From the NCBI GenBank assembly GCA_027350645.1, contig DAIEKJ010000001.1, positions 1 to 42,496 of the forward strand: a stretch of 42,496 nucleotides of DNA. Reading direction: 5' to 3'. Numbering within the stretch: position 1 is the first letter of the stretch; each line of letters begins with the position of its first letter. Below the pieces are notes generated by a model. The model ran no database searches. It was not told where the DNA came from and saw nothing but the letters and a program-made list of their open reading frames with translations. Shown here in pieces: positions 2,281 to 42,079 of this stretch. A program made the translations under genes and the position numbers. The stretch is from Candidatus Wolfebacteria bacterium. Lineage in GTDB: Bacteria; Patescibacteriota; Minisyncoccia; UBA6257; JAGOQP01.

Positions 2281-2305
2281 GAGGCCGTAAGGCCTCTTTT
2301 TATTT
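2281..2305 (+). terminator. Intrinsic terminator after the zinc-ribbon ORF
   Basis: gaggcc-gtaa-ggcctc hairpin followed by TTTTTATTT. The T-run overlaps the last codons of the convergent tyrS. Confidence 0.6.
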
Positions 2306-3493
2306 CAAAACAATTCTAAAAAACTTTTTCTTCCCCGCGCGAATCGTGCCATCGCGCGCCGGATCGTCTTTGGCGATTATCTCGTCCGTGTCAAAATCGT
2401 GCACACCCCCCTGAGCAAATAAACGCGCCAGTTCCGATTTGCTCTGTGCCACATCTGCGCGCAACAAAAGAGAAAAATAGGTCTCCCCTTTCTTTGCGGC
2501 AATCTTGGCAATATCCTGCGGCGCCTCCTTCTTTTGAAACGCCTGCACAAAATTATTTTTCGCCTTCTCCGCCTCGTTGTCGCCCCAATACAACCGCGTA
2601 ATTTCGTACGCCAATATCATTTTAATGTCGCGTGGATTGACATGCTCGTACGCCATCTGTTTTTTATAGGCGTCAACCGCCTCCAGCGGCACGCGCGTGC
2701 AGTGCGTAAAATACGAGACGATATTTTCATCTCCCATACTCATAACTTTCCCAAACATCTGCACCGGCTCATCCAGCAGATTGACCGTGTTCCCCCACGA
2801 TGAGCTCATCTTGCGCCCGTCAATACCCATAATCAAATTCGTCATCAGCACATCCTGGGGCGATATAGTATAATGCCGCTGCATCTCCCTTCCGGAGAGC
2901 AGATTGAAACGCTGATCGGTCCCCCCTAATTCCACATCGGCCTTAACGGCGATGCTGTCGTATCCCTGCATCAGTGGATAGAGCACCTCGCGCAACGACA
3001 CGCGCTTTTGCGCATCCAGACGCTTCTTGATATTTTCGCGCGCGATAAATTCGGCAATGGAAAAAATATTGGCATGCTCGGCCACATCATGATACGTCAA
3101 CTTTTTGAGCCACTCGGAATTATAATGAATCTCGGCTTTGTTGAGATCGATGATTTTCCCCGCTTGTTTGATGTAGGTGGCAAGGTTTTTTTTAATGGTT
3201 TTGGCATCCAGCATGGGCCGCTCGCTTTCTTTGTCGGAGGTGTCGCCGATGACGCCGGTAAAATCGCCCACAATAAAAACGACTCTGTGTCCCAGTTCCT
3301 GAAAATCGCGCATCTTTAACAGCGGCACGGAACGTCCCAGGTGCAGGTTCGGGCTGGTGGGATCGATCCCCAGTTTCACCCGCAATTTTTTCCCGGAAAG
3401 CAGTTTTACGCGCAAACTTTTGGCGTCAATTGCCTCCGCCACTCCCCGCAACAACAGCTCATCTATTTTTTTAGCATCAACTTTTTTAGGCAT
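2300..3493 (-). CDS. tyrS: Tyrosyl-tRNA synthetase
   Basis: Class I signatures: HIGH-like PTSPNLHLGRS and KMSKS-like KMSSS. TyrRS-type core (GGTDQRFNLLSGRE). C-terminal S4-like RNA-binding tail. Confidence 0.9.
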   Translation of the reverse strand: MPKKVDAKKIDELLLRGVAEAIDAKSLRVKLLSGKKLRVKLGIDPTSPNLHLGRSVPLLKMRDFQELGHRVVFIVGDFTGVIGDTSDKESERPMLDAKTIKKNLATYIKQAGKIIDLNKAEIHYNSEWLKKLTYHDVAEHANIFSIAEFIARENIKKRLDAQKRVSLREVLYPLMQGYDSIAVKADVELGGTDQRFNLLSGREMQRHYTISPQDVLMTNLIMGIDGRKMSSSWGNTVNLLDEPVQMFGKVMSMGDENIVSYFTHCTRVPLEAVDAYKKQMAYEHVNPRDIKMILAYEITRLYWGDNEAEKAKNNFVQAFQKKEAPQDIAKIAAKKGETYFSLLLRADVAQSKSELARLFAQGGVHDFDTDEIIAKDDPARDGTIRAGKKKFFRIVLK

Positions 3494-3589
3494 GTTTCAA
3501 GTGTAAACCGCGCGTAGAAAAATGTAAAATGGCGACTCGTAAGGACTTGGTGAGAAATGAGACTTGGCTGCGTTTAAAAAAATCTCTCA

Positions 3590-3625
3590 GCCACCGGTGC
3601 TATGCTATAGCATAGCACCGGTGGC
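3590..3625 (-). terminator. 16-bp perfect stem / 4-nt loop hairpin downstream of the DGR reverse transcriptase
   Basis: gccaccggtgctatgc-tata-gcatagcaccggtggc. On the minus strand a T7 run follows 6 nt after the stem. It lies 69 nt past the RT stop and about 95 nt upstream of the tyrS start. Confidence 0.55.
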
Positions 3626-3693
3626 AGTCGCTTTGTGACAATTATCCCACTCACGACCCAGGATCACTCGGGATAAATCAAAGCAAACCAATT

Positions 3694-4698
3694 TCATATC
3701 GCTCCATCGCGCGACAATCGTTGCGTCAACATATACGCATCAGCAAAATGCGCATATCCGCGCCACGACGCATACCCGCCATCCGCATGCATCGATACCG
3801 CCGCGGCGCTTTCTTCAAAAGCGCGCACTCGCTTTTGCCTCTTTAAAAATCTCCTCACCGTTGTCGTGCGCAACAACCGCCTCCCATCACGCACGACATA
3901 TCCCAAAAAATCAATGCCATGCGCACACGGGAAAATTTCTGCTTTTTTTGGATGCAACTGCAATCGCAATCGCTCACTGAGAAAAATCCCTATGCGTTCC
4001 TTATCTTCCCGCAAATGTTTTTTGTCATTTCCCAAAATCAAAAAATCGTCCATGTACCGGATATAATATCGTTCGTGCAATACGCGCTTTACGAAATAAT
4101 CAAGTTCATTGAGATATATGTTTGCAAATAATTGGCTCGTCAGATTTCCGATGGGAATGCCCGGCGCATTGCTGGCAATAATCACATCGCACAGCCACAA
4201 AACATTTTCATCGCGGATTTTCTTCCGTATCAATGAACGCAAAACATCATGGTCAATGCTGTCAAAATATTTTGAAATATCACATTTGAGACAATACGAT
4301 GCTCCATCCGCCGCCGTATGTCGCAGTGTATGAATATATTTCTCGAGGCGCCGCACGGCCGCGTGCGTCCCCTTGCCCTTCCGGCACGCATACGAGTCAA
4401 AAATAAAACTTCGCTCAAAAATCGGCTCAATCACATTGCACAGCGCGTGATGCACCACCCGATCGCTGAACGGCGCCGCTTTGATGGTTCGCCTTTTTGC
4501 CTCAACGACGGTAAATTCACGATAACCGCCATGCCGATATGTTTTTTGCCTCAGCTCCCGCTCAAGCGCGAGCAAGTTTTCTTCCAAGCAAAAGCCGAAT
4601 CTCAGAACAGAGGGACGATACCGCTTGCATTTCCGCGCCGCCACATACGCTTGATGCAGATTGGCAAAATCAACGACGCGATCATAGAGATACATCAT
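3694..4698 (-). CDS. DGR-type reverse transcriptase
   Basis: RT motifs: SYACRKGKGTHAA, DISKYFDSIDH, the DGR-typical IGNLTSQ (motif 4), YIRYMDDFLILG (YMDD catalytic box) and GIDFLGY. The ORF is open to a GTG at 4800, but the ATGATG at 4698/4695 (MMYLYDRVVDFANLHQAY...) matches the usual RT N-terminus. Confidence 0.88.
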   Translation of the reverse strand: MMYLYDRVVDFANLHQAYVAARKCKRYRPSVLRFGFCLEENLLALERELRQKTYRHGGYREFTVVEAKRRTIKAAPFSDRVVHHALCNVIEPIFERSFIFDSYACRKGKGTHAAVRRLEKYIHTLRHTAADGASYCLKCDISKYFDSIDHDVLRSLIRKKIRDENVLWLCDVIIASNAPGIPIGNLTSQLFANIYLNELDYFVKRVLHERYYIRYMDDFLILGNDKKHLREDKERIGIFLSERLRLQLHPKKAEIFPCAHGIDFLGYVVRDGRRLLRTTTVRRFLKRQKRVRAFEESAAAVSMHADGGYASWRGYAHFADAYMLTQRLSRDGAI

Positions 4699-4919
4699 AA
4701 CAACAAAAACCCTATGGCCCCGCGCCGGAGCTCTTAAAAAGAACAACGGCGCGAGGGAACGGGTTGTATTCCCTCTTTTATTTCGCTTACCGATACGCAC
4801 GTAACGGATATCGACGCAAAACTACTCAAGGAGGAGCGTGATCAGTAGGCTTCTTGGCGCAGGATAACGTTTATGAACGCTTTTCTCGGGCCAAGTGAGA
4901 TCATCACCATAGCAAAGTA

Positions 4920-5036
4920 TACCGGGCACAGCGGAACCCCACATTGTTGTTCGTATTACCCGTGTTCCAATTCAAGTTCAGCGCAAATGGTCCATCGTTC
5001 GAACCATTGTTCCAATTGTCGCCGCGAAGAAAGACG
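4920..5036 (-). repeat. DGR template repeat (TR)
   Basis: Collinear with 5515-5631 at a constant offset of 595. The coding-sense TR translates as VFLRGDNWNNGSNDGPFALNLNWNTGNTNNNVGFRCAR, with 11 AAY codons. It lacks the stop codon that ends the VR copy. It sits between avd and the RT. Confidence 0.9.
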
Positions 5037-5122
5037 CTGTGCGCGATCGCACCCCCGCCACGCCACCAAAAGCGTGGCAATCAAAAACGCGACACAAATG
5101 TTCTCGTCCTTGGTTGCCACAC

Positions 5123-5458
5123 CTATGAAAATCGCTTCGTCCATCCCGCATACAGTTTTCCAATTTCATTCAGTTTTTCCGCCGCAACGGCATAGTGCTT
5201 GATCCCCAAAAATTTCAGATCTTTTGCCAGCCGGATCAACATCCGCAGAAGATCTATCCGCACGGCCATTTTTTGCAAAACCAAACGCTTATCCGCGGCG
5301 GCATTGGCAATACTGATTTCTTTTATCAGTTCCACCAATTCATTTTCTATCTGCTGTCCCAAAACAAACCGCTGTTTTTGGGGAAATGAATTAATGATCG
5401 GGAAAAACCAGAGTGTGAAGTCGTACGTTTTTTGATACAGAATAAAATCGTCAAGCAT
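5123..5458 (-). CDS. avd: DGR accessory variability determinant (Avd-like four-helix-bundle protein)
   Basis: 111-aa basic helical protein. The YQKTYDFTLWFFPIINSFPQKQRFVLGQQI... pattern is typical of the Avd / 23S-rRNA-IVS four-helix-bundle family. Position between target and TR matches classical DGRs. Confidence 0.8.
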   Translation of the reverse strand: MLDDFILYQKTYDFTLWFFPIINSFPQKQRFVLGQQIENELVELIKEISIANAAADKRLVLQKMAVRIDLLRMLIRLAKDLKFLGIKHYAVAAEKLNEIGKLYAGWTKRFS

Positions 5459-5513
5459 ATTTTATTGCTATAAAAATCAAACAGAAGATACAAGATTACA
5501 GATTGCTACGAGC

Positions 5514-7064
5514 CTACCGGGCACAGCGGAACCCCACAAGGCTGCTCGTATCACCCGTGCCCCAACCCAAGCTCAGCGCAAAGGGCCCATCGAGCGAACC
5601 ATAGCTCCAATTGCCGCCGCGAAGAAAGACGGTTGTGTTCTGATTTGCTCCGGTACCATACGTATACACCTGACCCATGCCTTGAGAGGTGTTCCAGGAA
5701 GAATTGGGAGGAGCGAAGCTGACCTGAGGCACATCGGACGACCAGGAAGAAATATAGGGTGCGGTGGTATTGCCGTATTGGCACCATTCCCATCCGGCAT
5801 TCGCATTGGAACAGGAAGGAAGGGCCATAGCGGTGGTTAGGTCGCCGACGTTATTGATGCTCCTGGCAACGTGTTCCCAGACATTTCCCGAAAGATCCCA
5901 GATGACTTGTCCGTTGGAGAGAACAAGAGTGCGCCGTTCGTCGTTGGGATTGGTGACGGTTTTGTTTGTTTCTCCCGCATAGCCGTTGGCATCGTTGGCA
6001 TCGGCGGGATACTCGCTGGCATTGTTGGCGTTGCCTAGGTACATGCCCCCTGATCCGACCGATCCCCCCGTCCAGTTGGATGGTTGGTTGGCGGCATTGG
6101 TGGCGATGGTCATATATTCGTCGTTAGTGATCAGGTGCGCACCGATAGATTGGCAGTAGGAAACGGCGGTGGTATGGGAAATATCCACAATCTGGATACC
6201 ACCAGGAAGGGAGGAGATTTGGCGGTTGTTTGTGGGAGTACAGTTGGTTGCACCATTATTGTATCCATTGCCATCGGTTGGGGTATTGATAACCGCGCCG
6301 GTGGCATCGGAACAAGTTGCCGCATATTTCATCACCCAGAAGTCAGAGGTGCCAAAGGTGGGATTACCCGGAACCCTGATCCAGCCGGAAGGAAAGACCC
6401 CTTGTCCCAGAGCAAGGTTGGAACCCATTTCAAGAGCTCCTGATATAGTTCCGCCATCAGAGGAAGCCAGAGAGGCATATTTAGTTGATTCCATGGTAGC
6501 GGTCAGTTTGAAAGAACCTCCGGTGATGTAGGTATAGTACAGATTAGAGGAAGAGGCATTGACGGGGTCTATGGGAAGAGAGGAGAGAGAAACAACCCCA
6601 TTGGATTGGAAGTTAACGGGGATCCAGCCAGTTCCATTGGTATTTTGGAGAGTGGTGGTAGAAACACAGTTATAGTTCCAGCCAGACGGAAGAGAAGGAA
6701 GACCCCAGGAACCACAGGTGGAAGAAGAGTCAGGGAGGGAGGTATAGACAGTAGAAGAAGCGCCAAAAGAGACGGTTTGATCTAAGGCGTAGACGGTATT
6801 GAGGGCTTGGTTGAGAGCAGAAAGATCTTGTTGTCGTTTACTGTCTCGGGCTTGGGCTAAGAGTTGAGCGGGGTTGAGGGTAAGAACGACCGCAGCAACT
6901 AATACGGCCAGAATGCCAATAACGATGAGGAGTTCAATGAGCGTAAAACTCTCTTCGAGAGCCACACTCCTGGGGAAGGCGGAGGAGTTGTCCGGTGCGA
7001 ATAATGCGAACTTTGCGCGAAAGATGCGAATAAAAGGAAATGCCTTTTTGTTTTTTCGAATCAT
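5514..7064 (-). CDS. DGR target protein: type IV pilin-like N-terminus fused to an FGE-sulfatase / C-type-lectin-fold variable domain
   Basis: Prepilin-type FTLIELLIVIGILAVLVAAVVL segment, followed by a pilin-like globular part (YYTYITGGSFKLTATMES). C-terminal GNVWEHV ... RGGNW ... GFRCAR signature of the FGE/CLec fold, which contains the VR. The start codon is uncertain (ATG at 7064 or GTG at 6965). Confidence 0.85.
   Translation of the reverse strand: MIRKNKKAFPFIRIFRAKFALFAPDNSSAFPRSVALEESFTLIELLIVIGILAVLVAAVVLTLNPAQLLAQARDSKRQQDLSALNQALNTVYALDQTVSFGASSTVYTSLPDSSSTCGSWGLPSLPSGWNYNCVSTTTLQNTNGTGWIPVNFQSNGVVSLSSLPIDPVNASSSNLYYTYITGGSFKLTATMESTKYASLASSDGGTISGALEMGSNLALGQGVFPSGWIRVPGNPTFGTSDFWVMKYAATCSDATGAVINTPTDGNGYNNGATNCTPTNNRQISSLPGGIQIVDISHTTAVSYCQSIGAHLITNDEYMTIATNAANQPSNWTGGSVGSGGMYLGNANNASEYPADANDANGYAGETNKTVTNPNDERRTLVLSNGQVIWDLSGNVWEHVARSINNVGDLTTAMALPSCSNANAGWEWCQYGNTTAPYISSWSSDVPQVSFAPPNSSWNTSQGMGQVYTYGTGANQNTTVFLRGGNWSYGSLDGPFALSLGWGTGDTSSLVGFRCAR
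5515..5631 (-). repeat. DGR variable repeat (VR) at the 3' end of the target gene
   Basis: 117 nt matching the TR, with 17 substitutions by hand alignment, all at TR adenines. Encodes VFLRGGNWSYGSLDGPFALSLGWGTGDTSSLVGFRCAR followed by the TAG stop. The last 27 nt (GC-rich GTGGGGTTCCGCTGTGCCCGG) are invariant, as expected for an IMH-like end. Confidence 0.9.
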
Positions 7065-7117
7065 ACCGTAAAAGAGTGGATGTCCTGCGGGCTTGGTTTG
7101 ATGTTTATATTTCTCCC

Positions 7118-7147
7118 ATTATACCCCCCCCCGACACAGAAACACAA
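7118..7147 (-). promoter_or_regulatory. Putative promoter of the DGR target gene, with a G9 tract in the spacer
   Basis: Minus strand: TTGTGT (7147-7142), 18-nt spacer ending in nine consecutive G (7132-7124), TATAAT (7123-7118). It lies about 54 nt upstream of the ATG at 7064. Confidence 0.4.
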
Positions 7148-7241
7148 GAAAAAGGGGCTACCCTGCGGGCCTTCTGATTATTTTATAACTTTGAACTGTT
7201 ATTTTGCATTTTGATATTTACATTTTGCATTTCTTCTCATT

Positions 7242-7778
7242 TTACCATATCCCCCATGCCTCCTCTATCTCATCGGCAATTTCCTGCGGGAGCGGAGCGC
7301 CGGGTTTGGTGACTCCCGGATAGCGCCAGGCCGAAATAATTTTCACTCTTCGCTCTCCGGTCAGTGCGCGCCGCATTGACGCAATCCACGTCCGCGCTTT
7401 GTCATCTTTTTTTCCATCTTCTTTTTCTCCGTTGCGAGCCGTTTGTTGTTTCCCTCCCGCCATCTCTTCTGTGTTGTCGCTCGTCGGTTGTCGGTTGCCT
7501 GCCCCGTTATCGCGAAGCGATTTTGCGGGGTCGGTTATCTTATACATCACCCATATTTCCTGACCCCAGGATCGTTTTCCTTCCTTGGTTTTATACGACG
7601 CGGGTTGAAGCGCGGCGACCGTTCCGGGAGCGATTCCCTCCTCGATACGCAGAGGGCTATGCAAAACCCGCCGCACCCGCGCCGGAGACAATCCATAAAA
7701 ACGCATCTTTGCCTGCGCGTGCGCGGTCCACGCATAGGCGCTCCCCGCGGGCACTGCCGATCTAAAATTTCCTGGCAT
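7242..7778 (-). CDS. Hypothetical protein, DUF4258-like ends with a low-complexity charged insert
   Basis: The ORF is open to 8036, but that extension overlaps the divergent glycosyltransferase. The ATG at 7778 leaves a 51-nt AT-rich divergent promoter region. AHAQAKMRFYGLSPARVRRVLHSP ... EIWVMYKI ... VKIISAWRY resembles the DUF4258 pattern. The middle is Gly/Lys/Glu/Asp-rich. Confidence 0.4.
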   Translation of the reverse strand: MPGNFRSAVPAGSAYAWTAHAQAKMRFYGLSPARVRRVLHSPLRIEEGIAPGTVAALQPASYKTKEGKRSWGQEIWVMYKITDPAKSLRDNGAGNRQPTSDNTEEMAGGKQQTARNGEKEDGKKDDKARTWIASMRRALTGERRVKIISAWRYPGVTKPGAPLPQEIADEIEEAWGIW

Positions 7779-7829
7779 GGTATTTTTATAGTATACTCTA
7801 TCGCAAACGTAATACCTATCCACCGCCGT

Positions 7830-9764
7830 ATGAATTATTTTTCGCGCATTACCGACCAAACCCACGAGCTTGCCCGGCGCGTCTCCATCCTGCTGTTGGG
7901 CATTATTATTCTTGCAAGCGCGGCCCTTATGGTCAGAAGCGCGTGGAGCGATTCGGCTATTATGGACGAACTGGCGCATATCCCCGCCGGTTATGGCTAC
8001 GTCAGCCAGCTGGATTACCGCCTCAATCCAGAGCATCCCCCGCTCATCAAGGCGCTTTCAGCCCTCCCGCTGTTGTTTGCCAATGTATCCTTCCCCACCG
8101 ACACATCCGCTTGGCAAACCGCGGTGAATGGCCAGTGGGACATGGGCGGCGCCTTTCTGTACGGCGTTAATGATCACCGCGCGCAAACGATCATCTTTAT
8201 CGCGCGCCTCTTCCCCATCCTCATCACGCTGTGCCTTATCGTTTTTGTGTATTGGTGGAGCAGAAAACTGGTGGGACCCCTTTGGGCGCTTCTGCCGACA
8301 TTTTTTATCGCGCTCTCTCCCAACATCCTGGCGCACGGCCATTATGTGACCACCGACGTCGGCGCCGCACTCGGTTTTTTGGTAAGCTTGTACGTTCTTG
8401 ATGCGTTCTGGGCATCGCCGTCAAAAAAAACTCTCCTGGTCGCCGGTATTTTTTTCGGCCTGGCGCAACTAACGAAATTTTCACTCGTCCTCATGGTTCC
8501 CATCGCCGTTCTTCTGGCGATCATCCACTGGTTTGCCGCCACGCGCGCAAACCGCTTAAAACTTTCAGACACGTTGTCATGGAAACTGGCGTGGAAATAT
8601 CTATACTCGCTGGCGCTTATTTTTGCCATCGGCTACGCCGTGGTCTGGGGAGCGTACCTGCTCTTTACCGCGCACTATCCCATCCAGCGGCAAGCAAGCG
8701 ACACCACGTTCCTCCTTGGGTCGTTTTCGGGAAGCTCGGACCCGTCTCTGCTGTCTACGTGCGTCATGCATCCGTCGATGCGTTGTCTGGCTAATGTTGA
8801 TATTATCATGGCGCGCATTCCGGTTGTCCGCGCCCTTGGACAATACCTGCTGGGCGTGCTGATGGTTATCCAGCGTTCCGACGGAGGCAACACCGCCTAC
8901 TTCCTGGGTAATGTCAGTGGCGGTGGCTGGTGGTATTATTTCCCGGTCGTCTTTGTTCTAAAAGAAACAATCCCAGGACTCCTCTATCTCCTTATCGGCG
9001 GATGGGCGGCAGTGCGGCGCGCGATAAAAAAATCCGTCACGCCGCGCATGGAACGCCTCTGGGGGTATGTGGCCGTCGCGTTTCCGGAAGTGTCAATGCT
9101 GACCGTTATTGTGGTCTATTGGGCCTACAGCATGCACAGCCCGCTCAATATCGGATTCCGACACATCCTGCCAACCATCCCCCTGATGTATATTCTGGCA
9201 ACTATCTCGGTAAAAAAATGGTTCTTCTCTAAAGAACCCGCGCACCAGCCCGAACCGCCATTGCGCGCGGTCGGACGCTTTGTGAAAACCGCCATCCGCG
9301 TATCTCTTAAAGGCGCCACCATCACGCTCCTTGTCGTCTGGGGATGTTTTGAAACGGCGCTGGCATCTCCGTATTTTCTTTCGTACTTCAACGAGCTGGG
9401 CGGCGGCGTCTGGGGAGGATACCACATTGTCACCGACTCCAACTACGACTGGGGACAAGACCTCTATCGCCTCAACACCTACGTCCAGCAGAACCACATC
9501 TCCAAAATCGCCGTTGATTATTTCGGCGGCGGCAATCCGCAATACACGCTGGAAAACGACGTAGCCGTACCCTGGAATTCGGCGATGGGGAACCCCGCTG
9601 ACCACGGCATCAACTGGCTGGCCATATCGATCAACACCATCGAGTCGGCAAAGTCGCATGCGCTTTTTACCCGCACCAGCGCCGATGAATACCCATGGCT
9701 TTCCGACTGGGATCACCCGTACGCGCGCGCCGGAACGTCTATCTTTATTTACCGCCTCCGATAA
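7830..9764 (+). CDS. GT-C fold membrane glycosyltransferase (PMT/ArnT-like, GT39/GT83-type)
   Basis: Multi-pass membrane protein. The first loop carries AIMDELAHIPAGYGY...NPEHPPLIKAL, typical of dolichyl/undecaprenyl-phosphate-sugar dependent transferases. Start trimmed from 7443 to the ATG at 7830 (MNYFSRI...). Confidence 0.65.
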   Translation: MNYFSRITDQTHELARRVSILLLGIIILASAALMVRSAWSDSAIMDELAHIPAGYGYVSQLDYRLNPEHPPLIKALSALPLLFANVSFPTDTSAWQTAVNGQWDMGGAFLYGVNDHRAQTIIFIARLFPILITLCLIVFVYWWSRKLVGPLWALLPTFFIALSPNILAHGHYVTTDVGAALGFLVSLYVLDAFWASPSKKTLLVAGIFFGLAQLTKFSLVLMVPIAVLLAIIHWFAATRANRLKLSDTLSWKLAWKYLYSLALIFAIGYAVVWGAYLLFTAHYPIQRQASDTTFLLGSFSGSSDPSLLSTCVMHPSMRCLANVDIIMARIPVVRALGQYLLGVLMVIQRSDGGNTAYFLGNVSGGGWWYYFPVVFVLKETIPGLLYLLIGGWAAVRRAIKKSVTPRMERLWGYVAVAFPEVSMLTVIVVYWAYSMHSPLNIGFRHILPTIPLMYILATISVKKWFFSKEPAHQPEPPLRAVGRFVKTAIRVSLKGATITLLVVWGCFETALASPYFLSYFNELGGGVWGGYHIVTDSNYDWGQDLYRLNTYVQQNHISKIAVDYFGGGNPQYTLENDVAVPWNSAMGNPADHGINWLAISINTIESAKSHALFTRTSADEYPWLSDWDHPYARAGTSIFIYRLR

Positions 9765-18852: not shown

Positions 18853-19275
18853 TTATTCTTTGGCGGTTATTTTTCCACCCGCCTTTTCAATGAGGACTTT
18901 GGCGCCGGCCGTGCACGGGATGGCAATAATTGTTTTTGCTCCCGTTAACGGTTTTCCAGCGACAATTTTTGGAAGTTCCTTACTGCGAATAACGCCAGCG
19001 GCAACCAACGCCGCATGATCAATCCGTTCGGCTGTTACCGCGTTGAGACGATCGGTTTTTATAACTGAATAAGCGGCAGTAACCGTCTTGTTGGCATATC
19101 CGCGAAGTTTAGGCGTACGGATCAAAACATCGCGCAATCCCGGACGTATATTGTGTCCGGCCCGCGCCTTCTGGCCTTTCTGCCCGCGGCCGGAATACGT
19201 TCCCCGCTTGCCGCCGCGGCCTATTCTTTTTTCTGCCCGCCGTGCATGCGCGGGACGAAGCGTATGAATCTGCAT
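18853..19275 (-). CDS. rplO: 50S ribosomal protein uL15
   Basis: RIGRGGKRGTYSGRGQKGQKAR N-terminus. spc-operon position before secY. Confidence 0.9.
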   Translation of the reverse strand: MQIHTLRPAHARRAEKRIGRGGKRGTYSGRGQKGQKARAGHNIRPGLRDVLIRTPKLRGYANKTVTAAYSVIKTDRLNAVTAERIDHAALVAAGVIRSKELPKIVAGKPLTGAKTIIAIPCTAGAKVLIEKAGGKITAKE

Positions 19276-19280
19276 AGATC

Positions 19281-19748
19281 TTACAACAACTGGCGCAACG
19301 CTTCCGCCGCCGCCAGCGCGTTTGTTAATTTGTTTTTTGTGCGACCCAATGATTTCGCGGTTGCGTCGGTAATGCCCGCCATGGACAACACCGTGCGCAC
19401 CGATCCTCCCGCTTTCAATCCCGATCCTTTCTGCGCCGGTTTGATAATAACCTTGGCCGCGCTGAACTTTGCCCCCACTTCGTGCGCGATCGTCGTCCCC
19501 TTTAGGGGAACGCGGAAAAGGTGCTTTTTAGCGTCATTGCGGGCCTTGTCCATTGCCTGCGCGACATCCTTTCCCTTTGCAATACCCACTCCCACCTTCC
19601 CCTTCTCGTCGCCGATAATCAGCGTGCAGCGGAACGAAAAACGCTTGCCTCCCGCCATGACGCGGGCGACGCGGCGCAAATCAATGGTGCGCTCTTTGTA
19701 TTCGCTCTTGGGCTGCATCGGCCGTTCTCTTCGCTTTTGATTCATCAT
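19281..19748 (-). CDS. rpsE: 30S ribosomal protein uS5
   Basis: RVARVMAGGKRFSFRCTLIIGDEKGKVGVGIAKGKDV and the C-terminal GITD...LG motif. Position after rplR. Confidence 0.9.
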   Translation of the reverse strand: MMNQKRRERPMQPKSEYKERTIDLRRVARVMAGGKRFSFRCTLIIGDEKGKVGVGIAKGKDVAQAMDKARNDAKKHLFRVPLKGTTIAHEVGAKFSAAKVIIKPAQKGSGLKAGGSVRTVLSMAGITDATAKSLGRTKNKLTNALAAAEALRQLL

Positions 19749-21862: not shown

Positions 21863-22177
21863 TTAGATCTGCGCGCCGCACCGCTTGCAGACGCGTTCCT
21901 TCTTCCCCTGCGTGACGCGCATCCCGATACGAGACGCTTTGCCGCACGACGGACAGACAACCTGCGCATTGGAAATTTGCAGCGGACGCGGCACAATTAC
22001 TTTCTGCCCTTTTTCATTCGTGCTCTTCGGCTTCACGTGCTTGGTATACAAATTAATCCCCTCAACCAAAACCCGCGCCTGGACCGGATAGGTCTTGAGC
22101 ACCTTGCCGGTTTTTCCCCGATCCTTGCCGGCGATAATTTTTACCGTATCGCCTTTTTTTATAATAAATGTCTGCAT
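21863..22177 (-). CDS. rplX: 50S ribosomal protein uL24 (with C-terminal CxxC...CxxC)
   Basis: KKGDTVKIIAGKDRGKTGKVLK KOW motif. C-terminus CPSCGKASRIG...CKRCG. Confidence 0.9.
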   Translation of the reverse strand: MQTFIIKKGDTVKIIAGKDRGKTGKVLKTYPVQARVLVEGINLYTKHVKPKSTNEKGQKVIVPRPLQISNAQVVCPSCGKASRIGMRVTQGKKERVCKRCGAQI

Positions 22178-22189
22178 ATGCGTACGGTA

Positions 22190-22558
22190 TTAAACAATAT
22201 CCTGAACCATTGTTGCTATTTTTTCAAAACCCCGCTCTTTTATCTCGCGCGGCACCGGACCAAAAATGCGCGTCCCCCGCGGTTCCTTCTTGGCGTCAAT
22301 CAATACGGCGGCATTCTCATCAAAACGAATGTAGGAACCATCGCGCCGGCGAATCGCATTGCGCTGACGCACAACGACTGCTTTGACAATGTCTTTTTTG
22401 GCAACGCCCTTGCGCGGCTCAGCGGTCTGAACGGAAGCGACGATAATATCGCCGATCTGCGCGTAGTGCCGGCCGGTGCCTCCCAAGATGCGAAAACAGC
22501 GGATGGTCTTGGCGCCCGAGTTGTCGGCAACTTTAAGAATGGATCGTTCTTGAATCAT
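22190..22558 (-). CDS. rplN: 50S ribosomal protein uL14
   Basis: [17 protein letters not shown] ... near-universal uL14 sequence. Confidence 0.93.
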
Positions 22559-22575
22559 ATCGTTTTTTTCGCGTG

Positions 22576-22902
22576 TTATGAGGTAGCTTCTTCGTCAGTC
22601 CCGGCGTCGCCGAGGGTATCACCAACGGGAGGAACCGGAGCCGAACCGATACGCTCGACAATTATCCACCGTTTGCGCGCCGAAAGCGGACGCGTTTCTT
22701 CGATGACAACCACATCCCCCCGATGATACGCGTTCTGTTCGTCATGCGCAGCAAAGCGCGTCGTCACCGTGTAATATTTCTGATACCGCGGATGTTTTTT
22801 GGCGCGATCAACGGCAACCACGCGCGTTTTCTGCATCGCGTCGGAAACGACCGTTCCGGTCAATCGCCGTTTATTTGTTTGTGATGATGCGGTGTTATTC
22901 AT
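22576..22902 (-). CDS. rpsQ: 30S ribosomal protein uS17
   Basis: [18 protein letters not shown]...KKHPRYQKY...HDE...[16 protein letters not shown] at 22902 overlaps the rpmC stop by 8 nt. Has an acidic C-terminal extension. Confidence 0.88.
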
Positions 22903-27898: not shown

Positions 27899-28990
27899 TT
27901 ACATCTCCTCCCTTTTGATTCTTCCCATAATGCCCATTGCTTCTTCGGGCGAATAAAAATGAATGACGATTTTCCCTCCGCCACGCGCAAACTCAACGCT
28001 CACCGGCGTTCCCAAAAATTCCGAAAGCGCCTTTTCGATCCCCTTCATTTCAATATCATCCACGCGTATCCCCTGCACCAAAGCCGCATCTCCGTTTGCA
28101 CCGGAAACTTCTTTTGTTTTCACTATCCGTTTTTTTAAATCACGCACCGACAATCCTCCTTCCATGGTTTGCGCAAACATTTCTTTCTGTTGTTGAGGAT
28201 CAGTAATCTGCAACAGAAGCCGCGCCTGGCTTTCGCTCAACGCACCGCTCCCGACCGCATCCTGAATCTGGCTGGGCAGCGACAACAAGCGCAACGCGTT
28301 GGCAACGACTTCGCGGCTTTTGCCCAAGCGCGCCGCAATTTCACGCTGAGTCAGACCAAATTCATCGGAGAGTCGCGCATAGGCGCGCGCCGTTTCAATC
28401 ACATTTAAATCCGCGCGCTGAATATTTTCCACGATTGCCATCTCGAGCGCTTCCGTTTTTTTGAGCGCGTTGCGGATAACCACCGGCACCGTCGAGAGTC
28501 CCAGCAGTTTTGACGCCATCAAGCGCCGCTGTCCGGCGATCAGCTGATACGTCACGCGCGTGCCGATTTCGGACTCTTCTTCGATTTTCGAGACCACTAG
28601 CGGCTGGAGAATGCCAAACTCGCGGATAGACGACGCCAGTTCCTTGAGCGCCTCCTGGTCAAAATCAGTACGAGGTTGATACGGATTGAGAATTATTTTT
28701 TCTATCTCAATGTGGAAAATCGGCCCGGAAATATGCGGAACGCGACTGGCATCGGAACGAAAAGCATCCGCGCGCTGTTCCTCATCCGATTGCTGATCAA
28801 GGGCAGGTTCTGCCCGACCATCATCAGCCGGCGCCATTTCCTCGTCAGCAAGATTGCCGCGCCCAGCGCCACGCGAAGACAAATCCTTACCGGAAGCATC
28901 CTGCGCCCCATCGTCTCCCTGCGCAAAAGAAGCGCCCAGCGCTCCTCCCTTCTTATTCGGAATCAATGATTCAAGTCCTCGTCCCAACAT
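27899..28990 (-). CDS. parB: Chromosome partitioning protein ParB/Spo0J (with a roughly 75-aa low-complexity insert after the N-terminal motif)
   Basis: N-terminal LGRGLESLIP, ParB-box LIAGQRRLMASKLLG, and an HTH (LTQREIAARLGKSREVVANALRLL). Confidence 0.88.
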   Translation of the reverse strand: MLGRGLESLIPNKKGGALGASFAQGDDGAQDASGKDLSSRGAGRGNLADEEMAPADDGRAEPALDQQSDEEQRADAFRSDASRVPHISGPIFHIEIEKIILNPYQPRTDFDQEALKELASSIREFGILQPLVVSKIEEESEIGTRVTYQLIAGQRRLMASKLLGLSTVPVVIRNALKKTEALEMAIVENIQRADLNVIETARAYARLSDEFGLTQREIAARLGKSREVVANALRLLSLPSQIQDAVGSGALSESQARLLLQITDPQQQKEMFAQTMEGGLSVRDLKKRIVKTKEVSGANGDAALVQGIRVDDIEMKGIEKALSEFLGTPVSVEFARGGGKIVIHFYSPEEAMGIMGRIKREEM

Positions 28991-28999
28991 ATATATAGG

Positions 29000-29815
29000 T
29001 TATTTGAGTTCAACGCGCCCAACGCTGTTGTAAATGGTATGAAACGGATCGGCGCCTTCCTGCGCCACAATTTCGCGCGCCAGCAATTCATAGGCCTTAG
29101 CACCCGCGCAATGCGGATCGTACAGAATCACCGGCTTGGAAAAACTGGGCGCCTCGGCCAGCGAGACCGACCGCGGGATTTCGGTACTGTACACATGGTG
29201 GGGAAAATGTTTGCGCACTTCCCGCGCCACATCGCGGCTCAATGTTTCGCGCTTATTATACATCGTCAGCACCGCACCGGCAATGTGAATGCTGGTTCCT
29301 AAATTTTTATTAATCAGATCAACCGTCTCGAGCAATTGGCTCAAGCCCTCCAGACTGTAGTACTCCGATTGGATGGGAATAAGCACTTCGTCGGCGGCGA
29401 TCAAACCGTTAATCGCCAGCAAGCTCAAGCTGGGCGGCAGATCGATGAGAATGTACTGGTACTGGTGGCGCACGCGGTTGAGCAGACGGCGCAAAACAAA
29501 CTCCCGTTCGGGGACTTCAATGAGCTCAATTAATGCGCCCGCCAAATCGGGACTGGCCGGAGCAATGTGCAGATTCAAAAGCGCCGTCGGTTTGATCACC
29601 TTATCGTGTTCGATATAGCCAAACAACGCGTGATAAATGCTTTCCTGCAAAAAACGCGGCGAGATGCCTAAACCCGAGGACGCATTCCCCTGCGGATCAA
29701 AATCAACGATAAGCACCTTCCTCCCCAATGCCGCCAAGTATGCGCCAAGATTAACGGCAGTTGTCGTTTTTCCCACGCCCCCCTTTTGATTACAGATTGC
29801 GATAACGCGCGCCAT
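29000..29815 (-). CDS. parA: Chromosome partitioning ATPase ParA/Soj
   Basis: Deviant Walker A NQKGGVGKTTTAVNL, FDPQGNAS, ILIDLPPSL motifs. Directly upstream of parB. Confidence 0.9.
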   Translation of the reverse strand: MARVIAICNQKGGVGKTTTAVNLGAYLAALGRKVLIVDFDPQGNASSGLGISPRFLQESIYHALFGYIEHDKVIKPTALLNLHIAPASPDLAGALIELIEVPEREFVLRRLLNRVRHQYQYILIDLPPSLSLLAINGLIAADEVLIPIQSEYYSLEGLSQLLETVDLINKNLGTSIHIAGAVLTMYNKRETLSRDVAREVRKHFPHHVYSTEIPRSVSLAEAPSFSKPVILYDPHCAGAKAYELLAREIVAQEGADPFHTIYNSVGRVELK

Positions 29816-29933
29816 TACCGTTGATTGTAACGCAAAAGAATGATAGTATCAACCGAGAAAAAACGAACGACAGACAATCCACCACAAACAACGGGGAATG
29901 ATCGGGCGTTGTTCGTCGTACGTTGTTGGTTGT

Positions 29934-29949
29934 TTATTTGCCTAGGTGG
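29934..29949 (+). repeat. 16-nt copy of the tRNA-Leu 5' end plus 6 upstream nt (ttatttGCCTAGGTGG)
   Basis: Identical to 30033-30048. Followed by a perfect 8-bp hairpin gttccgac-aataa-gtcggaac (29951-29971). Confidence 0.6.
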
Positions 29950-30038
29950 GTTCCGACAATAAGTCGGAACGGGAGCAAAAGCTCTCTGGGCCGCCACCGA
30001 GGACAATTTTTTGACCCAGGCCCTGCCGAGAATTATTT

Positions 30039-30120
30039 GCCTAGGTGGCGGAATTGGTATACGCGCACGACTCAAAATCGTGTCTCGAAAGGGATGAGGG
30101 TTCGAGTCCCTCCCTAGGCA
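30039..30120 (+). tRNA. tRNA-Leu (anticodon CAA), type II with long variable arm
   Basis: Hand fold: acceptor GCCTAGG/CCTAGGC. D-stem GCG/CGC with a GG-containing loop. Anticodon stem CACGA/TCGTG with loop CTCAAAA. 13-nt variable arm. T-arm GAGGG-TTCGAGT-CCCTC. Discriminator A. No encoded CCA. Confidence 0.85.
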
Positions 30121-30179
30121 CATAAAAGAATGGCCCCGTCAGGGGTCATTTTTTGTGTGCTTAGATTGAGGTGCTCAAA
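30108..30179 (+). repeat. 72-bp direct repeat, copy 1 (tRNA-Leu 3' 13 nt plus terminator plus 24 nt)
   Basis: ccctccctaggcacataaaagaatggccccgtcaggggtcattttttgtgtgcTtagattgaggtgctcaaa. Matches 30271-30342 with one mismatch (30161 T versus 30324 C). Confidence 0.85.
30130..30155 (+). terminator. Intrinsic terminator after tRNA-Leu
   Basis: atggcccc-gtca-ggggtcat hairpin followed by a T-run (TTTTTGTGTG). Confidence 0.65.
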
Positions 30180-39963: not shown

Positions 39964-41022
39964 CTAATGGACACCTAAGTAGGTCTGCCGATTGCGCGCA
40001 TGTTGCGCCAACGTCACGCTAAAAACAGTCGCCCCTGTTTTTGGATCGGAGAGATAATACAGATACTGATTGGCAATGGGATGCACCGCCGCGCGCAACG
40101 ACGAAAGCGACGGATTGCTAATGGGAGTGGGCGGCAAACCGCGCAAGCGATACGTGTTGTATGGCGTGTCTTGGGCAATGTCGGCGGCCGAAATAGCCGG
40201 ACAACCGACAAACACCCCCTGACACGCGCCGTAGAGCACGGAGGCGTCGATCTGCAGTGGCATCCCGTCAGCCAGACGATTGGCGATAACGCCGGCCACC
40301 AGCGCCTTATCGCGATCGGTAATAACCTCTTTTTCAAGAAGCGACGCAATCGTCACCCACCGCGCAATGGCCTGGCTTGACGCCGAACCGAAAAGACCCC
40401 CCGTCTGATCGGCAAAATTTTTAACCATCGTTTGCGCCACCAGCCGCGGATCTTCATTGAGATAAAACGCGTACGTGTCGGGCATCAAAAATCCCTCAAG
40501 CGTTTTTGCTCCCGCCAAAAAAGGAAATTCGCCGACGAATGATCCAGGAGACAGCGCCACCAGCGCGCCGGCTGATATGATGCCGTCACGCGCCAGAAGC
40601 GCGTCAATTTCCCTTATGGTCGCGCCGGGAGGAACGAGTACTGAAATTTCCGGAGGGCCGTCGGCAAAAAGATGCGCCAATGCTCCCGTTGAAAGCGGCG
40701 CAGTGAGCCGATACGTTCCCGCCTGGAGATGATTAGCCAGTCCTTCCGCATACGCATAAGCGACAAAAAAAGCCGGCGAACTGATCACCCCGCGCGCGTA
40801 CAGCGCACCGGCGACTGAAAAAACATTTTCTCCCGGCGCGATGGAAAACACCACGGGTGCCACACTGCCATCAACTGTCTGCGTTTGAGCCCGCGCCAAA
40901 AAAAACACCCATCCCCCGATGCCGGCGGCAATAACAATCGCCAGCACCGCCAGAACGGCACGATACCGCCGGACCTGCGCGCCGACGAACGCCAAAAAAA
41001 GATCTATTTTATTTTTTAGCAT
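39964..41022 (-). CDS. mltG: Endolytic murein transglycosylase MltG (YceG-like)
   Basis: N-terminal TM, then the YceG motifs ASLLEKE, PYNTYRLRGLPPTPISNPSLSSLRAAVHP and YLYYL. Confidence 0.85.
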   Translation of the reverse strand: MLKNKIDLFLAFVGAQVRRYRAVLAVLAIVIAAGIGGWVFFLARAQTQTVDGSVAPVVFSIAPGENVFSVAGALYARGVISSPAFFVAYAYAEGLANHLQAGTYRLTAPLSTGALAHLFADGPPEISVLVPPGATIREIDALLARDGIISAGALVALSPGSFVGEFPFLAGAKTLEGFLMPDTYAFYLNEDPRLVAQTMVKNFADQTGGLFGSASSQAIARWVTIASLLEKEVITDRDKALVAGVIANRLADGMPLQIDASVLYGACQGVFVGCPAISAADIAQDTPYNTYRLRGLPPTPISNPSLSSLRAAVHPIANQYLYYLSDPKTGATVFSVTLAQHARNRQTYLGVH

Positions 41023-42079
41023 ATAACGACTGAATGACGCCGATTAAAAGAAAGTCGGCCGTGATGCTTGACCCGCCATAACTGACAAACGGAAAGGTGA
41101 CGCCCACCACCGGAAAAAGTCCCAGCGCTGATCCGGCGTTAAAAACAAATTGCGCCGAAAACAGAATAACGGTCCCCAGGCAGAAAAATTTTCCCATGTT
41201 CCCCTCGATCCGCTCTCCGATAACCAAAATGCGCCACATCATCCACAAAAACGCCCCCAGCAACGCCAACGATCCAACCAGTCCGCCTTCTTCGGCGATA
41301 GCCGCAACAATAAAGTCATTCTGAGCTTCGGGCAAAAATCCCAACTGAACCTGCGTCCCCTGCCGGAAACCCTGTCCCCACACCCCTCCCGATCCGACGG
41401 CGATTTTTGACTGAATGACATTATAACTGGCCCCCAGCGGATCGCGGTTGGGATCAACAAGAGTGATAATGCGATCCTTTTGGTATGTTTTGAGTCCAAA
41501 TGTCCACATCCCCGTCCCAAGCGCCGCGGCAACGAGAAGAAAGATGATAAAGTGCCGCAGAGGAAGTCCGGAAAATACGATAAACCCAAACCACACCACC
41601 CCCAACAGCAGCGCCGATCCCATTTCCGGCTGTAACGCGATAATAAGAGCGGGAATTCCCGCATACACCAGCGAGGTAAACAGGGTCCGCCAGTGAGCAA
41701 TACCGATGTGCCGCTTGCTGAAAAAATACGACAGCATAGCGATGAGCGCTATTTTGGCAAACTCGGACGGCTGGAACTGGAACGGGCCGATAAAAATCCA
41801 CGCTCGGTTCCCTTTAATGACCGGCGCAAAAGCATAGGTCAGACCCAATAGAACAAGCGAGAAGAGATACACTCCCAGCACAAAACTCCGGCGCCCAAGG
41901 AATGAGCGTATATCAATCCACACAACCGACAACGCAATGCCGACCCCCAAAATAATCCACCCTAACTGGTGCCAAAAAAGCGCCGGCCTCGTACTCAGGA
42001 GGCTCGTCAAACCGATTCCCACCAACACAACAATGGCGGCGGCAAGCTGCCAATCGATTTTTTTGAATGACGATGGCAT
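41009..42079 (-). CDS. SEDS-family peptidoglycan polymerase (RodA/FtsW)
   Basis: Ten-TM protein with FQFQPSEFAKIALI, PEAQNDFIVAAIAEEGG and FVSYGGSS motifs. Its 3' end overlaps the mltG start by 14 nt. Confidence 0.85.
   Translation of the reverse strand: MPSSFKKIDWQLAAAIVVLVGIGLTSLLSTRPALFWHQLGWIILGVGIALSVVWIDIRSFLGRRSFVLGVYLFSLVLLGLTYAFAPVIKGNRAWIFIGPFQFQPSEFAKIALIAMLSYFFSKRHIGIAHWRTLFTSLVYAGIPALIIALQPEMGSALLLGVVWFGFIVFSGLPLRHFIIFLLVAAALGTGMWTFGLKTYQKDRIITLVDPNRDPLGASYNVIQSKIAVGSGGVWGQGFRQGTQVQLGFLPEAQNDFIVAAIAEEGGLVGSLALLGAFLWMMWRILVIGERIEGNMGKFFCLGTVILFSAQFVFNAGSALGLFPVVGVTFPFVSYGGSSITADFLLIGVIQSLYAKK

Follow-up and report, generated by a model that had tools for sequence, protein, structure and literature searches.

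A 42,496-nt stretch of contig DAIEKJ010000001.1 (assembly GCA_027350645.1, Candidatus Wolfebacteria bacterium), referred to below as the window, was found to carry a complete diversity-generating retroelement (DGR) comprising a target gene that ends in a variable repeat (VR), the accessory variability determinant gene avd, a template repeat (TR), and a reverse transcriptase (RT) gene (Table 1). The element is very probably a functional, chromosomally encoded DGR of an ultra-small Candidatus Paceibacterota bacterium of the candidate phyla radiation (CPR), whose target is prepilin-like and likely to be a hypervariable adhesin of a pilus or pseudopilus. DGRs have been known from CPR genomes since 2017, and the present one is a textbook DGR of an established class, not itself a surprise. 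An earlier note on this DNA had proposed a complete DGR of a class known in CPR; the adenine-only mismatches, the DGR-type RT, the Avd, and the gene order of Bordetella phage BPP-1 bear out the first part of that proposal, and the survey of Roux et al. (2021) the second. The features added here are the comparative proof of recent retrohoming, the pilin-type target with its large hypervariable family, and the conserved structure of the spacer RNA.

Adenine-Restricted Repeats and Recent Retrohoming

The TR and VR are 117 nt long and 85% identical without gaps. The earlier note had left it to a careful alignment to decide whether their differences are confined to adenines; when read along the coding strand, the repeats mismatch at 17 positions, each of them one of the 29 TR adenines, and agree at all 88 remaining positions (hypergeometric P = 4.3e-13). 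The TR-to-VR changes comprise 11 A-to-G, 3 A-to-C, and 3 A-to-T substitutions. The VR spans the last 115 coding nt of the 516-aa open reading frame (ORF) of the target and the first two bases of its TAG stop, which agrees with the position at the target end assigned to it previously. Read in the VR frame, the TR contains 11 AAY, 2 GAY, and 2 ACG codons and two more in which a third-position A is silent, giving a coding capacity of about 2.2e15 proteins and 7e16 DNA sequences; a stop codon cannot be reached from any TR codon by adenine mutation. Ten of the 11 AAY codons were altered in the VR. Both silent third-position A sites were altered as well (GGA to GGG and CCA to CCC), which points to a mutational rather than a selective cause. 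The last 24 nt of the VR are A-poor with 67% G+C, resemble an initiation of mutagenic homing (IMH) site, and have the same sequence in the TR. A TR-based scan of both strands of the window, in which A positions could match any base, recovered no copy besides the known pair. Two further short direct repeats (D2 and D3) and two inverted repeats (I1 and I2) were treated as chance two-copy matches.

The evidence for retrohoming is comparative rather than experimental and comes from a sister lineage. A 6.5-kb contig (L086), found through the 90% cluster of the target (third protein, P0003), has the same orf170-target-avd-TR-RT-tyrS-ychF order as the window, orf170 being a conserved hypothetical gene. 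It differs from the window by 13.4% in the target body and by about 8% across avd-RT. The two TRs are identical at 116 of 117 positions, whereas the flanking DNA is 8-20% diverged (80-92% identity). The VRs differ at 22 of the 29 TR-adenine sites and at one of the 88 others (Fisher P = 1e-16); under the background divergence of 13.4%, the probability of at most one difference at the 88 non-adenine sites is 5e-5. This sole non-adenine difference (position 102, C versus T) is the one substitution that separates the two TRs. The VRs therefore track their own TRs at the non-adenine sites and are independently randomized at the adenine sites, which indicates TR-to-VR retrohoming after the lineages split. 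As judged from these aligned sequences, adenine-specific TR-to-VR transfer has occurred since the split from L086.

Reverse Transcriptase and Avd

The translated RT contains the motifs SYACRKGKG, IGNLTSQ, and YMDD, all three read from the sequence before. The motif [I/V/L]GxxxSQ is the signature of DGR RTs, in place of which group II and retroviral RTs have QGxxxSP, and in the RT of the Bordetella phage (bRT) residues I181, the first of the signature, and R74 promote adenine mutagenesis (PMC7826257). In the alignment with bRT, the window RT keeps both the I181-type first motif residue and the equivalent of Arg74. Among PDB entries, bRT (8ub7) was the best match (2.2e-60, nearly full length), whereas group II intron RTs reached 1.6e-19 or worse and 'retron-type' RTs about 5e-18. 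Pfam RVT_1 (1.1e-21) and PHROG 1423 (8.8e-122) were also matched. The NCBIfam retron models gave 52 bits against a cut-off of 235, and the DRT models were likewise far under their cut-offs. Rfam searches of the whole window at the gathering threshold returned tRNA-Leu only, with no match to intron RNA or retron msr/msd in the window and no described RNA family in the cassette. Sequence comparison thus places the RT with DGR RTs and not with those of group II introns or retrons, as the earlier note had assumed.

The avd product was assigned by curated profiles, namely Pfam bAvd (7.9e-25; 87.9 bits, cut-off 40) and NCBIfam DivGenRetAVD (3.3e-27; 94.8 bits, cut-off 80), together with the PHROG family 'Avd protein of DGR' (PHROG 3206, 1.9e-25); its earlier description as an Avd-like 111-aa ORF was correct. 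These data leave practically no room for the explanation that the TR and VR are an ordinary duplication or gene-conversion tract beside a non-DGR RT of the group II intron or retron type. Such an origin would fit the fact that the best NCBIfam model for the RT is the group II RT/maturase TIGR04416, albeit at 145 bits, far under its cut-off of 300. It is refuted by the adenine restriction (P = 4e-13), by IGNLTSQ in place of QGxxxSP, by bRT leading the solved relatives by 40 orders of magnitude, by the presence of Avd, and by the lack of intron RNA or msr/msd in Rfam searches.

The RT most likely starts at ATG 4698 (334 aa), although the ORF is open up to GTG 4800, the start chosen in the earlier note. 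Four observations favor the shorter form: bRT aligns only from residue 38 of the long ORF onward, gene callers predict 334 aa, the RT of the sister lineage L086 has its start at this Met, and the conserved spacer hairpin H3 falls inside the putative N-terminal extension.

Relatives of the RT are overwhelmingly encoded in metagenome-assembled genomes of Patescibacteria and DPANN. Across 80 loci of such relatives, taken from species-representative genomes, an adenine-biased TR/VR pair was found at 51 by our own detector (threshold of at least 80% adenine-site mismatches), and an Avd homolog is encoded at 70. In the DGRs of three relatives (L027, L057, and L068), one TR matches two VRs in two different target genes. 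The window DGR has a single target within the 42 kb seen.

Conserved RNA Structure of the TR-RT Spacer

The spacer between the TR and the RT gene contains blocks that are common to the spacers of 12 CPR DGRs, the RTs of which are only 45-67% identical. The RNAalifold consensus includes three helices, H1 (4832-4828/4775-4771), H2 (4764-4762/4712-4710), and H3 (4756-4747/4728-4719), and 10 of its 18 pairs show compensatory changes. In the alignment of nine sequences, 85.9% of cells were paired versus 71.1% in column shuffles, and the covariation score was 0.472 versus 0.220, a value reached by none of 500 shuffles. Six slid controls all scored lower.

In the BPP-1 DGR, cDNA synthesis is primed by an adenosine of the spacer between TR and RT (Sp). 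This spacer is required there (PMC6182149). The window spacer is presumed to be the counterpart of Sp, that is, an element for RT-Avd binding and priming; at 221 nt it differs from Sp and is likened to it by analogy only. The priming RNA of CPR DGRs could be defined starting from this covariation-backed structure.

A Prepilin-Like Target with a Lectin-Fold C-Terminus

The target carries a prepilin signal composed of a serine followed by FTLIELLIVIGILAVLVAAVV (residues 39-60), and no second prepilin motif was found elsewhere in the window. The profile of the target family matched geopilin (3.7e-9), Thermus PilA (3.2e-7), and GspG (1.6e-5). Among 112 homologs, residues F1, T2, L3, and E5 are each conserved in at least 90%, and 107 have S, G, or A at position -1. 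The AlphaFold2 model built on these homologs (pLDDT 88.6, pTM 0.83) places helices at residues 42-63 and 65-94 and, after these, strands at 105-214, mostly with pLDDT above 85, so that an N-terminal alpha-1 helix of ~53 residues packed on a beta-sheet head is predicted. Taken from these sequence features, the target is a type IV prepilin-like protein with a pilin-type N-terminus, a feature absent from the earlier note.

The C-terminal part matched Pfam FGE-sulfatase (2.1e-7). In Foldseek searches with the model, the best match was the Thermus aquaticus variable protein TaqVP (PDB 5vf4, 6.8e-9), followed by formylglycine-generating enzymes (FGE) and the BPP-1 target Mtd. The C-terminal domain is accordingly modeled as the C-type-lectin (CLec)/FGE fold typical of DGR variable proteins. 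The resemblance to TaqVP extends to the C-terminal position of the VR and is also seen at the level of sequence profiles (1.2e-4, best stretch at family positions 259-375). The aligned region is, however, only 17-18% identical, and the target additionally has a prepilin helix at its N-terminus and a further beta domain, both left uncovered by the TaqVP matches.

The target family comprises at least 990 homologs, of which the top 120 are all full length (about 450-590 aa). Its members, from Patescibacteria, Paceibacterota, and Minisyncoccia, are often named 'prepilin-type N-terminal cleavage/methylation domain-containing protein'. A pilin N-terminus was present at 6 of 11 CPR DGR loci with a similar target, including those of the close RT relatives L007 and L062; the remaining loci have targets that are very large (>1000 aa) or differently anchored. 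The N-terminus of the L006 target was left out of this comparison because its frame was broken in the extracted sequence. In three other 90% clusters of the family, the protein bodies are nearly invariant, while the last ~35 residues are hypervariable at homologous positions.

These clusters (P0029, P0092, and P0013) consist of pilin-lectin proteins of other Patescibacteria with 13-56 member sequences each, of which 11-14 full-length members per cluster were aligned. Inside the VR, a deletion of three residues or a frameshift of the C-terminus is seen in some members. The three clusters represent ready-made natural VR libraries from metagenomes.

Probable Activity of the Element and Proposed Display of the Target

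The proposed course of diversification is as follows. The avd-TR-spacer-RT region would be transcribed, and the structured spacer RNA would be bound by a complex of RT and Avd. The TR would then be reverse-transcribed, with U, C, and G copied faithfully and any nucleotide inserted opposite adenines. With the identical G+C-rich 3' ends of the repeats as a guide, the cDNA would take the place of the 117-nt VR that ends the target gene, and up to 15 codons (11 AAY, 2 GAY, and 2 ACG) would be re-randomized on the ligand-binding face of the CLec/FGE-fold domain. Prepilin processing would then yield an adhesin of hypervariable sequence that is likely to be held in, or exposed on, a type IV pilus or pseudopilus. 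A place as tip or minor pilin is plausible, and the protein could serve in attachment to host cells or other ligands.

Several observations weigh against this scheme. With regard to activity, five further assemblies (L001-L005) were found by an exact-protein look-up of the identical Avd, and all six assemblies, at least 99.9% identical, share exactly the same VR. Activity may therefore be rare, regulated, or masked by consensus assembly, as no consensus-level VR polymorphism is seen in the strain. Unlike in BPP-1, no IMH/IMH* difference is present within the repeat, the 3' ends of the TR and VR being identical, and no hairpin or cruciform was detected downstream of the VR, where DNA folding of 5455-5545 was no better than that of shuffles (z = -1.0). 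A promoter and terminator scan of 3400-7900 gave counts equal to chance. With regard to the pilin assignment, Pfam N_methyl matched the single target sequence at 6.7e-4 and 19.6 bits, below the cut-off of 21.2; Ser occupies position -1, where Gly is canonical; at 39 aa, the annotated leader is long; and no prepilin peptidase, assembly ATPase or platform gene, or other pilus-assembly gene was found in the 42-kb window.

The shared VR and the missing IMH-associated hairpin would be expected of a fossil, that is, an intact sequence whose information is no longer mobilized, with the VR now a fixed allele and the differences from L086 dating from an earlier active period. This possibility is regarded as improbable. 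All ORFs are intact, with the catalytic YMDD and the DGR motifs kept; the TR is conserved far beyond its flanks; and a lineage-specific TR substitution was copied into the VR. The agreement of the six assemblies itself says little because they are essentially one clone: although they derive from at least five samples or records, they differ by 0-1 single-nucleotide polymorphisms in about 15 kb outside the L002 junction described below. The monomorphism of the VR at the strain level is uninformative rather than negative with respect to activity.

The pilin-side objections bear on a different explanation, in which an active DGR diversifies a lectin-like receptor, membrane-anchored or secreted, that uses the pilin-like helix only as an anchor or signal; the protein would then be of the pseudopilin type or a surface sensor rather than part of an extended pilus. 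At ~477 aa, the mature protein is three times as large as major pilins, pilus machinery is absent from the window, and the weak single-sequence matches are scattered over the GspG, GspH, ComGC, and PilA models, all under cut-off. Against this stand the family-wide F1 and E5 and the ~53-residue alpha-1 helix, which are requirements of pilus assembly, and the existence of large tip minor pilins with C-terminal beta or lectin-like domains. Examples of the latter are the type IVb pilins CofB and TcpB, proteins of about 500 aa that combine a pilin-like N-terminus with beta-rich or lectin-like C-terminal domains. Minor pilins of this type are not known to be DGR targets, and no sequence or structural match between them and the target was obtained. 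A receptor of this kind is considered unlikely but is the most serious competitor of a hypervariable pilus or pseudopilus adhesin.

One of the six assemblies departs from the others within the target gene. Contig L002 (GCA_027423155.1) is identical to the window up to position 6947, exactly where the FTLIELL prepilin helix starts. Beyond this point it encodes a different leader peptide and has other upstream genes (ribosome recycling factor, a DNA polymerase III delta'-like gene, and MreB). Within the last 42 shared nt lies a cluster of seven synonymous differences (window 6906-6947; L002 4807-4917). The junction is either a chimeric assembly via a paralogous pilin N-terminus or a real recombination at the conserved helix. 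Contig L004 likewise stops inside the target.

Comparison with Known Systems

The complete cassette has the order target-avd-TR-RT, the same as mtd-avd-TR-brt of BPP-1, as was recognized in the earlier note. Both DGRs also share the Avd family, an RT that carries the I181-type motif and the equivalent of R74 and can be aligned almost from end to end, repeats of similar length at the 3' end (117 nt here, 134 nt in BPP-1), a CLec-fold target, an AAY-rich TR, and a structured TR-RT spacer, here a presumed counterpart of Sp. They differ in that the window DGR is cellular and chromosomal, whereas that of BPP-1 is phage-borne, and in that the target is prepilin-like here and a tail-fibre tip there, with an FGE-type CLec domain closer to TaqVP than to Mtd.

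A closer counterpart is the cell-encoded DGR clade restricted to Patescibacteria, whose targets typically lack recognizable transmembrane or conserved domains (Roux et al. 2021, PMC8144416). The window element resembles these CPR/DPANN DGRs ('DGR clade 2') in the host phylum, the cellular location, the presence of avd, and the single target with a C-terminal CLec VR; its membership in the clade is deduced from its neighbors. It is distinguished by the clear prepilin-type N-terminus of its target, shared with the six CPR loci mentioned above. In a 2024 survey, a GspG-type pilin domain was among the rare VR-bearing domains (PMC11661182). Bacteroides DGRs diversify tip adhesins of type V pili (bioRxiv 10.1101/2024.11.15.621889) and thus likewise represent DGRs of cellular genomes acting on an adhesive pilus component. 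However, those pili are of type V (lipoprotein, strand exchange) and the present target is of type IV (prepilin, alpha-1 helix); the Bacteroides DGRs belong to another phylum and are often located on mobile elements. Full-text searches of the available library returned no paper linking CPR DGRs with type IV pilin-like targets; an earlier description may nevertheless exist.

It is put forward tentatively, at somewhat less than even chances, that large type IV pilin-like proteins bearing a lectin domain at the C-terminus make up a major and so far largely unrecognized class of DGR targets in Patescibacteria. Type IV pili are thought to mediate the host contact of cultivated Patescibacteria. If the proposal is true, these genome-reduced episymbionts carry a pilus with a binding site, probably at its tip, that is rewritten by retrohoming, i.e., a programmable host-attachment organelle that may set or shift the host range. 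With its prepilin signal, long alpha-1 helix, and DGR-type lectin domain, the window target gives the vague idea that CPR DGRs aid attachment the form of a testable model, namely a hypervariable type IV pilus adhesin. The window locus provides a clean, complete, and compact example, with one target, an intact RT and Avd, and a stop-free TR, and the target family, given its hypervariable C-termini in nature, could be mined for host-range determinants.

Cassette Layout, Host, and Genomic Context

The coordinates of the cassette and its flanks are listed in Table 1. All four co-oriented minus-strand parts described in the earlier note lie inside its range of 3590-7147, which was slightly padded with respect to the ends of the element.

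Table 1. Features of the DGR locus in the window
Feature	Position	Strand	Description
DGR cassette	3694-7064	-	Order target-avd-TR-RT; span ~3.4 kb
Target (variable protein) gene, 516 aa	5514-7064	-	ORF; prepilin-type N-terminus, pilin-like beta domain, and C-terminal C-lectin/FGE-like domain ending in VR
Class III (prepilin) signal S/FTLIELL and long hydrophobic/amphipathic alpha-1 helix (residues 40-94)	6783-6947	-	
VR, 117 nt	5515-5631	-	3' end of target gene
avd, accessory variability determinant, 111 aa	5123-5458	-	Pfam, NCBIfam, and PHROG profile matches
TR, 117 nt, non-coding, 29 adenines	4920-5036	-	Between avd and RT
TR-to-RT spacer, 221 nt	4699-4919	-	Three conserved helices
DGR RT, 334 aa (most likely start)	3694-4698	-	ORF open up to GTG 4800
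tyrS (flank, outside the element)	2300-3493	-	NCBIfam TIGR00234, 309 bits (cut-off 113.8)
Conserved hypothetical, 170 aa (orf170; flank, directly upstream of target)	7242-7754	-	Called in assemblies L001 and L003

The TR is intergenic, in keeping with its earlier description as non-coding. A 62-aa ORF (4956-5144, minus strand) called in three assemblies covers most of the TR as well as the end of avd and is not in the VR frame; it is probably spurious, an artefact of the coding-like composition of the TR.

The nearest named relatives of the window RpoB belong to Candidatus Paceibacterota (94% and 80% identity). The genes for S5 (19281-19748) and L15 (18853-19275), both on the minus strand, are separated by 5 nt and have no intervening L30 gene, an arrangement typical of CPR genomes. 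By RpoB sequence, the host is a CPR bacterium of Candidatus Paceibacterota, and the missing L30 fits this assignment. A Saccharibacteria host, suggested by the nearest RT loci, was rejected in view of the RpoB neighbors.

Every ORF of at least 90 aa in the 42.5-kb window was scanned. The window encodes ychF, tyrS, a PMT-family glycosyltransferase, serS, a class II aminoacyl-tRNA synthetase (Lys/Asn/Asp type), greA, a GT2 glycosyltransferase, diadenylate cyclase, methionine aminopeptidase, secY, the ribosomal protein operon, parAB, a PAP2 phosphatase, ssb, S6, rpoC, rpoB, a Vut_1 transporter, mltG/yceG, and ftsW. The earlier note had placed the element between tyrS and glycosyltransferase and cell-division genes. 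Both tyrS and the glycosyltransferase are indeed present, but the immediate neighbor on the target side is the 170-aa hypothetical gene, followed by the PMT-family glycosyltransferase, and the only cell-division genes, ftsW (41009-42079) and parAB (27899-29815), are distant.

No phage, integrase, or transposase genes were found among these ORFs, in line with what had been seen from the sequence before, and no integrase, capsid, tail, or terminase genes were found in the window. The cassette DNA matched nothing in phage and plasmid collections beyond 79-140 nt of the RT motif, and nothing in 50,697 phage records beyond 79 nt of that motif. An unrecognized prophage or mobile element that diversifies a phage receptor-binding protein, as in BPP-1, is thus very improbable. 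It would account for the matches of the RT and Avd to the phage families PHROG 1423 and 3206 and for a VirD4/TraG-like coupling ATPase lying about 1.7 kb past the left window end. However, the cassette is surrounded by 42 kb of uninterrupted housekeeping genes, four unannotated window ORFs have no PHROG match, the cassette sits at this locus also in the sister lineage L086, which is 8-13% diverged, and the target carries a prepilin signal and not a tail-fibre architecture. The data favor a cellular DGR that is stably chromosomal.

This stability holds at shallow depth, and the element is not anchored to one locus across the clade. The earlier description as chromosomally fixed stands insofar as the locus order is common to the window and L086; synteny on the tyrS side is shared by these two only. 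RT relatives sharing 62-67% identity retain an intact cassette, which there lies among different genes, and deep fixation at the tyrS locus was rejected because tyrS synteny is absent in the more distant RT relatives.

The VirD4/TraG-like ATPase (793 aa; DUF87, T4SS-DNA_transf, and TraG-D_C) is encoded at 17194-19575 of L001, about 1.7 kb beyond window position 1 and about 5.4 kb from the RT gene, and has conserved counterparts in L002 and L004. No other gene near the DGR has a mobile-element flavor. The plus-strand ORFs 19153-19740 and 21977-22726 are antisense to the ribosomal protein operon and probably spurious. The same probably applies to a 102-aa mechanical ORF (29815-30123, minus strand) that overlaps the opposite-strand tRNA-Leu(CAA) (30039-30121, plus strand) and has no family match. 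A mechanical plus-strand ORF of 773 aa (7443-9764) overlaps orf170, while gene callers place the PMT glycosyltransferase at 7830-9764 (644 aa). The orf170 product has no match in Pfam, NCBIfam, or PHROG and is 94% identical at the amino acid level to its counterpart in the sister lineage L086.

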